A stretch of DNA of 64,000 bases from the NCBI GenBank assembly GCA_947085655.1, contig CAMTXH010000013.1:23513-87512 (forward strand), given 5' to 3'. A program made the position numbers and the translations under genes. The notes under the pieces are model-generated. The model was not told where the DNA came from and searched no databases. It worked only from the letters and a program-made list of their open reading frames with translations. The DNA comes from an uncultured Omnitrophica bacterium (GTDB lineage: Bacteria > Omnitrophota > Gorgyraeia > JACQQV01). Every line of letters begins with the position of its first letter. Within the stretch, counting starts at the first letter, position 1. Shown here one piece after another: positions 53,748-54,077 of this stretch.

Positions 53748-54077
53748 ATGAAAGCGATTGTTCCACAAGGAATGATTGAACAAAGGATTCTACTCATTCG
53801 AGGACACAAGGTTATGCTGGATAGCGACCTTGCGGAGCTTTACGGCGTAGCCACGAAAATGCTCATTCGGGCTGTCAAAAGAAATAAAGAGCGTTTTCCA
53901 ACAACTCATGGCTCCTCCAGAAAAACCGAAAAGAAGCATCGGCTTCCGTTCAACTCCCTAATCTTCCAAAATCTTTATCGTCAAAAATACCCCTTGACAA
54001 AGTGTATTCCATACACTATACTTATTGTAGGAGATACACGAAGAAAAAGGGAAGCCGATGCCGCGATTCTCTTTTGA
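53748..54077 (+). pseudogene. Relic of an ORF6N/KilA-N-type domain gene (first ~45 codons conserved, remainder unrelated)
   Basis: IRGHKVMLDSDLAELYGVATKMLIRAVKRNKERFP matches the ORF6N N-terminal motif; sequence after RFP diverges completely. The 3' end coincides with the nrtR promoter/operator. Confidence 0.45.
53995..54022 (+). promoter_or_regulatory. Near-consensus sigma70 promoter (TTGACA-16 nt-TATACT) whose spacer is a perfect palindrome AGTGTAT-tcc-ATACACT (candidate NrtR operator)
   Basis: -35 at 53995-54000, palindrome at 54001-54017, -10 at 54017-54022; the nrtR ATG is at 54058 with an AAGGGA RBS. Confidence 0.5.

Follow-up and report, generated by a model that had tools for sequence, protein, structure and literature searches.

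A decayed ORF6N gene beside an older, predicted NrtR-controlled nrtR-nadA promoter in an uncultured Omnitrophota bacterium

The open reading frame (ORF) at 53748-54077 of the window (the whole stretch of 64,000 nucleotides analysed here) begins as a gene of the ORF6N family and ends inside the next gene, nrtR, after running through the predicted promoter and operators of the latter. Such an arrangement raises the question of which of the two came first. The preliminary description proposed that a mobile-element relic had been turned into the regulatory region of a NAD-metabolism operon, and allowed, as a fallback, for a promoter older than the insertion. The analysis favors two independent, juxtaposed features: a decayed ORF6N gene and an ancestral, presumably NrtR-repressed nrtR-nadA promoter with two predicted operators. 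This reading is held with a probability of roughly 0.85, and the features on which it is built are collected in Table 1.

Table 1. Features around the nrtR start, in window coordinates.
Feature	Position	Strand	Remark
Window-specific segment, absent from L002 and L090	52029..53982	+	510-aa gene (52147-53679) and ORF6N relic
109-codon chimeric ORF, annotated as ORF6N protein	53748..54077	+	overlaps the nrtR start by 20 nt
ORF6N N-terminal remnant, codons 1-51	53748..53900	+	positions 1-51 of the 171-position homologue profile, E 1e-27
ORF6N C-terminal tail remnant KEIKSVFQQLMAPPEKPKRSIGFRSTP and stop, +1 frame	53878..53961	+	includes ancestral stop TAA 53959-53961
Predicted nrtR promoter: -35 TTGACA 53994-53999, 17-nt spacer, -10 TATACT 54017-54022	53994..54022	+	11 of 12 consensus positions
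Predicted NrtR box 1 AAGTGTATTCCATACACTA	54000..54018	.	fills the promoter spacer; perfect 7-3-7 palindrome 54001-54017
Candidate NrtR box 2 TATTGTAGGAGATACACGA, degenerate	54023-54041	.	directly downstream of the -10 element
nrtR: Nudix-like domain and NrtR winged helix	54058..54744	+	domain matches
nadA (quinolinate synthase), proposed regulated target	54747..55673	+	E 3.6e-113; 2 nt after nrtR
CPBP/Rce1-like membrane protease gene	55670..56470	+	overlaps nadA by 4 nt

The regulator gene that the ORF runs into encodes a protein of two domains. A Nudix-fold effector domain (PF00293 NUDIX) was found at residues 9-123 with E 8.7e-16, and the winged helix (PF21906 NrtR_WHD) is matched over profile positions 2-61 of 61 with E 1.4e-26; both domains are covered by the alignments to PDB 3GZ5 and 5BS6. 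The Nudix box of the protein, GPVERDESVDEAALRQLQKETQV, is degenerate, reading RQLQKETQV in the place of REUxEExGU, and therefore the role of a sensor seems more likely than that of a hydrolase. The NCBIfam model of the ADPR-responsive repressor (NF050029, equivalog) gives 170.5 bits (E 4.1e-50), which lies below its cut-off of 400 bits, and by this score the protein classifies as a family relative, not an equivalog, of the characterised group.

The relatives of this regulator were collected by a scan of a genome collection with NrtR, which gave 80 loci, and by four look-ups of closer homologues, which added five. The comparison set consists of 13 related loci with 60-83% NrtR identity, labelled Omnitrophota where they are labelled, the nearest relatives being labelled Candidatus Omnitrophota. 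The link of nrtR to NAD metabolism is kept among them: nadA stands downstream of nrtR in every related locus whose contig extends far enough, that is in 12 of the 13, and the contig of L086 ends at nrtR. The CPBP/Rce1-like gene, which probably closes the operon, also follows nadA in L088 (6842-7645) and L089 (2003-2806) and is absent in L002. One would not expect such a protease in the company of NAD biosynthesis genes. At the operon end, a search for an intrinsic terminator gave nothing convincing, and a promoter-like site at 56493-56521 precedes the gene after the protease. A further peculiarity of L088 and L089 is the gap between nrtR and nadA (5687-5865 and 848-1026, respectively), which is about 178 nt long as against 2 nt in the window; this spacer holds no NrtR box of 10 bits or more, and in L089 no Rfam match at gathering score was found.

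The promoter of nrtR is of the sigma-70 type, with both hexamers at a distance within the usual 16-18 nt. The near-consensus TTGACA/TATACT promoter of the preliminary description was found as described, except that its spacer measures 17 nt, not 16. The -10 element is followed by the nrtR ATG after 35 nt, and TTGACA is invariant in nine aligned loci and occurs in five further loci. The palindrome AGTGTATTCCATACACT (AGTGTAT-TCC-ATACACT), which had been equated exactly with the spacer, is perfect and does fill it, with an offset of one base: its first base is the second of the spacer, and its last is the first T of the -10 element. A palindrome with two arms of seven bases is by itself not rare, as about four are expected per 64 kb; this palindrome is the sole site within three mismatches in the 64 kb, for an expectation of 0.05. 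The significance of box 1 comes from its matrix score, which exceeds that of shuffled sequence, and from the same promoter position being kept in 13 other loci. The matrix is independent of the window because it was built only from the distant loci L003-L009; box 1 scores 26.5 bits with it, and the best score in 200 shuffled versions of the window is 19.5. The repressor-type operator geometry that had been noted before nrtR is upheld. Another promoter-like site, TTGACA-17-GATATT, is located just inside the nrtR coding region (54074-54102, 10 of 12 positions) and is probably due to chance.

In all 13 related loci, TTGACA and a box of the form GTGTAT-N3-ATACACT are found ahead of nrtR. The invariant columns of the alignment A1 are exactly the -35 element, both arms of box 1, and the TGTA...TACAC of a second box, which was absent from the preliminary account and which lies at 54023-54041, just after the -10 element. 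Each of the loci L002-L009 has a second box of at least 15 bits in the position weight matrix (PWM), and in L087-L090 the box at this position is weaker; it is in L003-L009 that the site after the -10 element is strong, and in the closer subclade it is weak. The second box of the window occupies the position of these strong boxes, and its TGTA-N5-TACAC belongs to the invariant columns. The distance between both boxes, measured from centre to centre, is 23 bp here and 23 to 33 bp among the relatives. The sequence of box 2 is weak by itself, since its 14.2 bits fall inside the shuffle range and at least 10% of shuffled 64-kb windows score similarly; position and conservation tentatively suggest that it is an operator. 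Such a box should overlap the transcription start.

The literature describes most NrtR motifs by a GT-N7-AC core and palindromic symmetry of about 21 bp. Box 1 contains tGTattccatACa, and the consensus of the Omnitrophota boxes, AAGTGTAT-N3-ATACACTT, holds the core as well as the symmetry. Both boxes of the window fit the published core. Further copies of the palindrome near other NAD genes, which the preliminary description had suggested as a check, did not turn up: the PWM scan covered the 64-kb window plus some 17 kb of the contig on its flanks (about 81 kb together) and found no further NrtR box, and the PncA-like/isochorismatase gene (59620-60225) and the SIR2-family (NAD-dependent deacylase) gene (7535-8275) have none upstream. 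The regulon link rests on the operon itself because no other box occurs in these 81 kb. The search for an RNA-based control, e.g., a riboswitch of the nadA motif type, gave no Rfam match in 52000-57000 even at E<=1, nor any match at gathering score in five related loci. In another part of the window (about 9015-11002), a BufA1-like precursor gene followed by a fusion gene of the MbnB/TglH/ChrH and HvfC_N type forms a bufferin-type RiPP cluster by Pfam.

The lack of further boxes near NAD genes in the 81 kb, together with the nearest solved structure being that of the arabinose regulator BtAraR, would be compatible with palindromes that serve as operators of a regulator other than NrtR, or with a box 1 that is merely a structural feature of the promoter. 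This possibility is very unlikely, as the boxes track nrtR through 13 loci with varied upstream neighbours, and similar sites of the form TAGTGTA-N5-TACACTA appear in some nrtR-homologue loci of more distant phyla (e.g., L016, L050, and L074). The motif also has the core and the symmetry of the NrtR family, and autoregulated nrtR-nadA operons are documented in the literature.

The 109-aa ORF upstream starts with ATG, preceded at 7 nt by a strong Shine-Dalgarno sequence, GGGAGGAGG. Its residues 13-62 correspond to positions 2-51 of the 86 positions of the Pfam ORF6N profile (PF10543; E 2.3e-14, 53.9 bits, cut-off 27.8), so the complete domain is not there, and the alignment with full-length ORF6N homologues extends over residues 1-51. 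These 51 residues are 69-80% identical to full-length members in tblastn. The full-length architecture of about 175 aa in one frame is missing as well, since profile positions of about 52-139 are gone and the tail lies in the +1 frame. A profile built from 88 full-length homologues was compared with all six-frame segments of the window: positions 1-51 match in the ORF frame (E 1e-27), and positions 140-167 match 53878-53952 in the +1 frame with E 8e-4, which ranks second in the 64 kb. In tblastn, the homologue P0003 gives the same collinear picture: its residues 1-51 align in the ORF frame, and the +1 frame takes up its residues 145-170 (E 6e-6). The full-length homologues terminate in ...IRQLMAPPEEPRRKIGFR..., and the C-terminal tail motif QLMxPPEKPKRxIGF is also present in the relic, where QLMAPPEKPKRSIGFRSTP can be read in the +1 frame up to a stop located 32 nt upstream of the -35 element. 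This tail matches the extreme C-terminus of 82 among the 120 homologue matches listed.

The consequence of the +1 frameshift is that the ORF frame misses the original stop at 53959-53961, which lies in the other frame, and the last 50 or so codons are read-through of intergenic and promoter DNA. The ORF is thus composed of the N-terminus of ORF6N, the out-of-frame remnant, and translated intergenic and promoter DNA, with residues of about 79-108 being the translation of the conserved promoter. The DNA derived from ORF6N ends at the ancestral stop, 53961. The zone of the deletion junction, 53881-53900, has family homology in both frames (RNKERFP in one, EIKSVF in the other), which may faintly suggest a deletion between short similar sequences (microhomology). 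Judged by its sequence, the ORF is a pseudogene of an ORF6N gene with an internal deletion and a frameshift. The earlier claim of a truncated gene with its N-terminal part only stands as to the incomplete domain, which has a real extent of about 51 codons; the supposed truncation turns out to be the loss of about 88 internal codons combined with a +1 frameshift. Homologues with the same in-frame C-terminus, which would have spoken for an untruncated gene, were not found, as none of the 119 other homologues among those listed matches the ORF over residues 52-109.

The family of this gene is large, with 1277 relatives of the 109-aa protein among 5.8 billion proteins. With the identical protein left aside, most of the best ORF6N matches are 70-80% identical to the ORF and span about 45-50% of it; in a few, coverage rises to 60-99%, at an identity of 44-63%, by way of a low-similarity extension beyond residue 51. 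The 88 full-length homologues of about 175 aa all align to the first 47% or so of the ORF only. Decay appears to be widespread, as 26 among the 120 matches listed are no longer than 125 aa and several short ones are frameshifted directly after the RFP motif; truncated or frameshifted ORF6N genes are common debris in this subfamily. An example of such behavior is P0059 (7 contigs), which has an in-frame internal deletion and is rejoined at the same point as the relic, directly before QLMxPPEKP; the shared point hints at a recurrent deletion end-point. An intact donor copy was sought by an exact 22-mer scan of metagenome contigs, which led to 8 loci; their identity is limited to 73-86% over about 100 nt, the exception being one 26-nt match of 96% at a contig end; the scan of viral contigs gave no match. 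One intact relative is flanked by hsdM and hsdS within a type I restriction-modification system, another adjoins AbiEii and a Cas3-like gene, and an ORF6N gene has been reported on an Omnitrophota mobile element. The fragment is most likely non-functional debris of a gene of a mobile or defence island. In two loci of Vampirovibrio/Melainabacteria, L059 (6847-7356) and L060 (7073-7453), a full-length ORF6N gene lies about 2.5 kb downstream of the nrtR homologue on the opposite strand, which is probably a coincidence.

The relic may still express a short product, because its ATG is intact, its Shine-Dalgarno sequence is strong, and its first 51 codons are without lesions. These properties would also suit a functional small gene, whose half-ORF6N protein would be coupled to nrtR in translation or structure, either by means of the 20-nt overlap or because a 12-nt pairing hides the Shine-Dalgarno sequence and AUG of nrtR on read-through transcripts. 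Such a pairing is provided by a perfect 12-nt inverted repeat (53936-53947 / 54050-54061; GCATCGGCTTCC / GGAAGCCGATGC) between the ORF6N tail and the start region of nrtR, the RNA fold of 53905-54095 has a z-score of -4.06, and no terminator-like site on the + strand separates the 510-aa gene from nrtR. A functional gene is nevertheless highly improbable, given that just half of the domain remains, that the C-terminal 58 residues have no homologue among the matches listed, that the DNA upstream of the relic gave no promoter-like site, and that decayed and short copies are frequent in the family; the arrangement is known from a single genome lineage and thus lacks comparative support. The right arm of the repeat (54050-54061) is not conserved in relatives, and the repeat could be relevant only to transcripts begun upstream of the nrtR promoter. 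Even more speculative, and to be regarded with great doubt, is a relic acting as an insulator or coupler of the NAD operon, in which the fold of read-through RNA would silence nrtR translation on messages begun outside the NrtR-controlled promoter, or the translation of the 109-codon ORF would open the fold and lead ribosomes on into nrtR.

The relative age of promoter and insertion can be read from the relatives without the relic. An ORF6N gene upstream of nrtR was found in none of the 13 related loci, which resemble the relic protein only over the residues of the translated promoter; over the core, the promoter and boxes are identical in these loci. Two of them, L002 and L090, share synteny with the window (thiolase, aminotransferase, nrtR-nadA), and in both the aminotransferase gene stands directly upstream of nrtR with an identical promoter. 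Past the aminotransferase gene, the nucleotide homology to these two breaks off; it starts again at 53983, 11 nt short of the -35 element. Since the same promoter and palindrome occur in 13 loci, none of which has ORF6N upstream, the promoter is older than the insertion, and the fallback of the preliminary description is thereby the one that agrees with the comparison. The regulatory region of nrtR-nadA is, on this comparison, ancestral and lineage-wide, and older than the ORF6N insertion; the anatomy of the locus, its conservation, and this order of events are read from the sequence and its relatives.

The ORF does physically span the promoter and both boxes, and this speaks for the main proposal of the preliminary description, in which co-option of the relic's 3′ part provided nrtR with its promoter and operator. 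That the relic carries or created this promoter is extremely unlikely, and the claim was not sustained: the ORF6N-derived sequence stops at 53959-53961, 32 nt before the -35 element, the promoter and boxes exist in 13 loci without ORF6N, and the homology with the relic-free syntenic relatives begins at 53983. A promoter and palindrome within the 3′ coding region of ORF6N were found in none of the 120 homologue matches listed.

The other gene of the window-specific segment, at 52147-53679, is a kinase-like orphan. The N-terminus of its product resembles a signal peptide, aa 121-194 are weakly ParB-like, and the C-terminal half has a P-loop of the uridine-kinase/PRK-like type. Its 510-aa product has only two distant homologues among 5.8 billion proteins, and its residues 36-208 share 41% identity with part of a 3099-aa protein encoded upstream of nrtR in L088. 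The one distant homologue examined is not adjacent to ORF6N. As for the scars of insertion, neither a target-site duplication nor a convincing flanking direct repeat was found, and there is no shift in GC, skew, or composition.

The deletion and frameshift are real because three independent assemblies are identical across the junction. The window is matched by contig CAYJWX010000001.1 of the metagenome-assembled genome (MAG) GCA_964374045.1, and the three assemblies, made from different sequencing runs, show 0 mismatches over 5.5-7.9 kb with the junction included, which leaves almost no probability for an assembly or binning artefact of one MAG, even with a metagenome-assembled genome as the source. 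Three short-read assemblies of the same strain (L094, L095, and L096) all end inside the promoter and operator, at window positions 54022-54040. These breaks are likely caused by the operator/promoter core of at least 31 nt, which is identical in co-occurring related species and tangles the assembly graph.

The two juxtaposed features can be combined into a simple model. An ORF6N gene (KilA-N-like, anti-repressor-type), of a family usual on mobile and defence islands, would have lost about 88 internal codons and acquired a +1 frameshift, so that 51 codons of its N-terminus remain, with about 27 of its C-terminus in another frame. The frame from the intact ATG would then continue across the intergenic spacer and the promoter of nrtR and 20 nt into this gene, giving the artefactual ORF of 109 codons. 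On the side of the operon, the strong palindrome would occupy the spacer of the near-consensus sigma-70 promoter and the weaker box 2 the region of the start site, so that NrtR dimers on the boxes would block RNA polymerase. In this way, NrtR would auto-repress nrtR-nadA(-CPBP protease), lowering both its own gene and de novo NAD synthesis, until ADP-ribose or a related NAD breakdown product relieves the repression. The binding, the repression, and the release by ligand are predicted by analogy with characterised NrtRs, and auto-repression of nrtR-nadA(-CPBP) from the two boxes is most likely on these grounds. In the literature, NrtR sites overlapping promoters are taken to imply repression, and ADP-ribose is described as the anti-repressor ligand that releases NrtRs from DNA.

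The model has consequences for annotation and for regulation. The deposited "ORF6N domain protein" of the source MAG would be a pseudogene whose frame is artificially extended over the promoter and the nrtR start, and the locus is an example of how mobile-element debris can land against a strong conserved promoter without altering it. For the uncultured Omnitrophota-labelled clade, an operator model of nrtR-nadA is obtained, in which two boxes of the Omnitrophota consensus are placed around the -10 element, and which predicts NrtR-type feedback on de novo NAD synthesis in this clade. The regulatory site is of a known type, and the finding challenges nothing in current knowledge.

Among known systems, the relic is comparable to the ORF6N/KilA-N-type anti-repressor-like proteins (PF10543; PHROG 4792) of about 175 aa, with which it shares the N-terminal 51 residues and the tail motif; in contrast to the intact members, it is without the central 88 or so residues, i.e., half of the domain, and its frame is broken. 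The operon resembles the autoregulated nrtR-nadA(-nadB/C) operons of Actinobacteria (Corynebacterium, Bifidobacterium), described by Rodionov et al. in 2008 (PMC2330246), and the system of Mycobacterium smegmatis, where NrtR is an auto-repressor (PMC6800001). As in those cases, the site lies before an operon that starts with nrtR and includes nadA, the GT-N7-AC palindrome overlaps the promoter, and a repressor of de novo NAD synthesis is predicted. The differences are the phylum, the motif variant AAGTGTAT-N3-ATACACTT, the prediction from sequence, and the gene content, which here comprises nadA and the CPBP protease without nadB or nadC.

The NrtR of Shewanella oneidensis (SO1979; PDB 3GZ5, 3GZ6, 3GZ8) has the same two-domain architecture (E 1.1e-37). 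It acts at prs-nadV through functional tandem sites, both of which were shown to bind, and two boxes are likewise found at one promoter here; the target is a de novo gene (nadA) instead of salvage genes (prs-nadV), and the second box is degenerate in the subclade of the window. The best match among solved structures is AraR of Bacteroides thetaiotaomicron (PDB 5BS6; E 9.4e-44, residues 11-213), a protein of the same fold family, which controls arabinose genes and senses arabinose, whereas the conserved partner in the present loci is nadA. Because this partner is kept in 12 of the 13 related loci, a role in NAD metabolism is far more likely than an AraR-like one.
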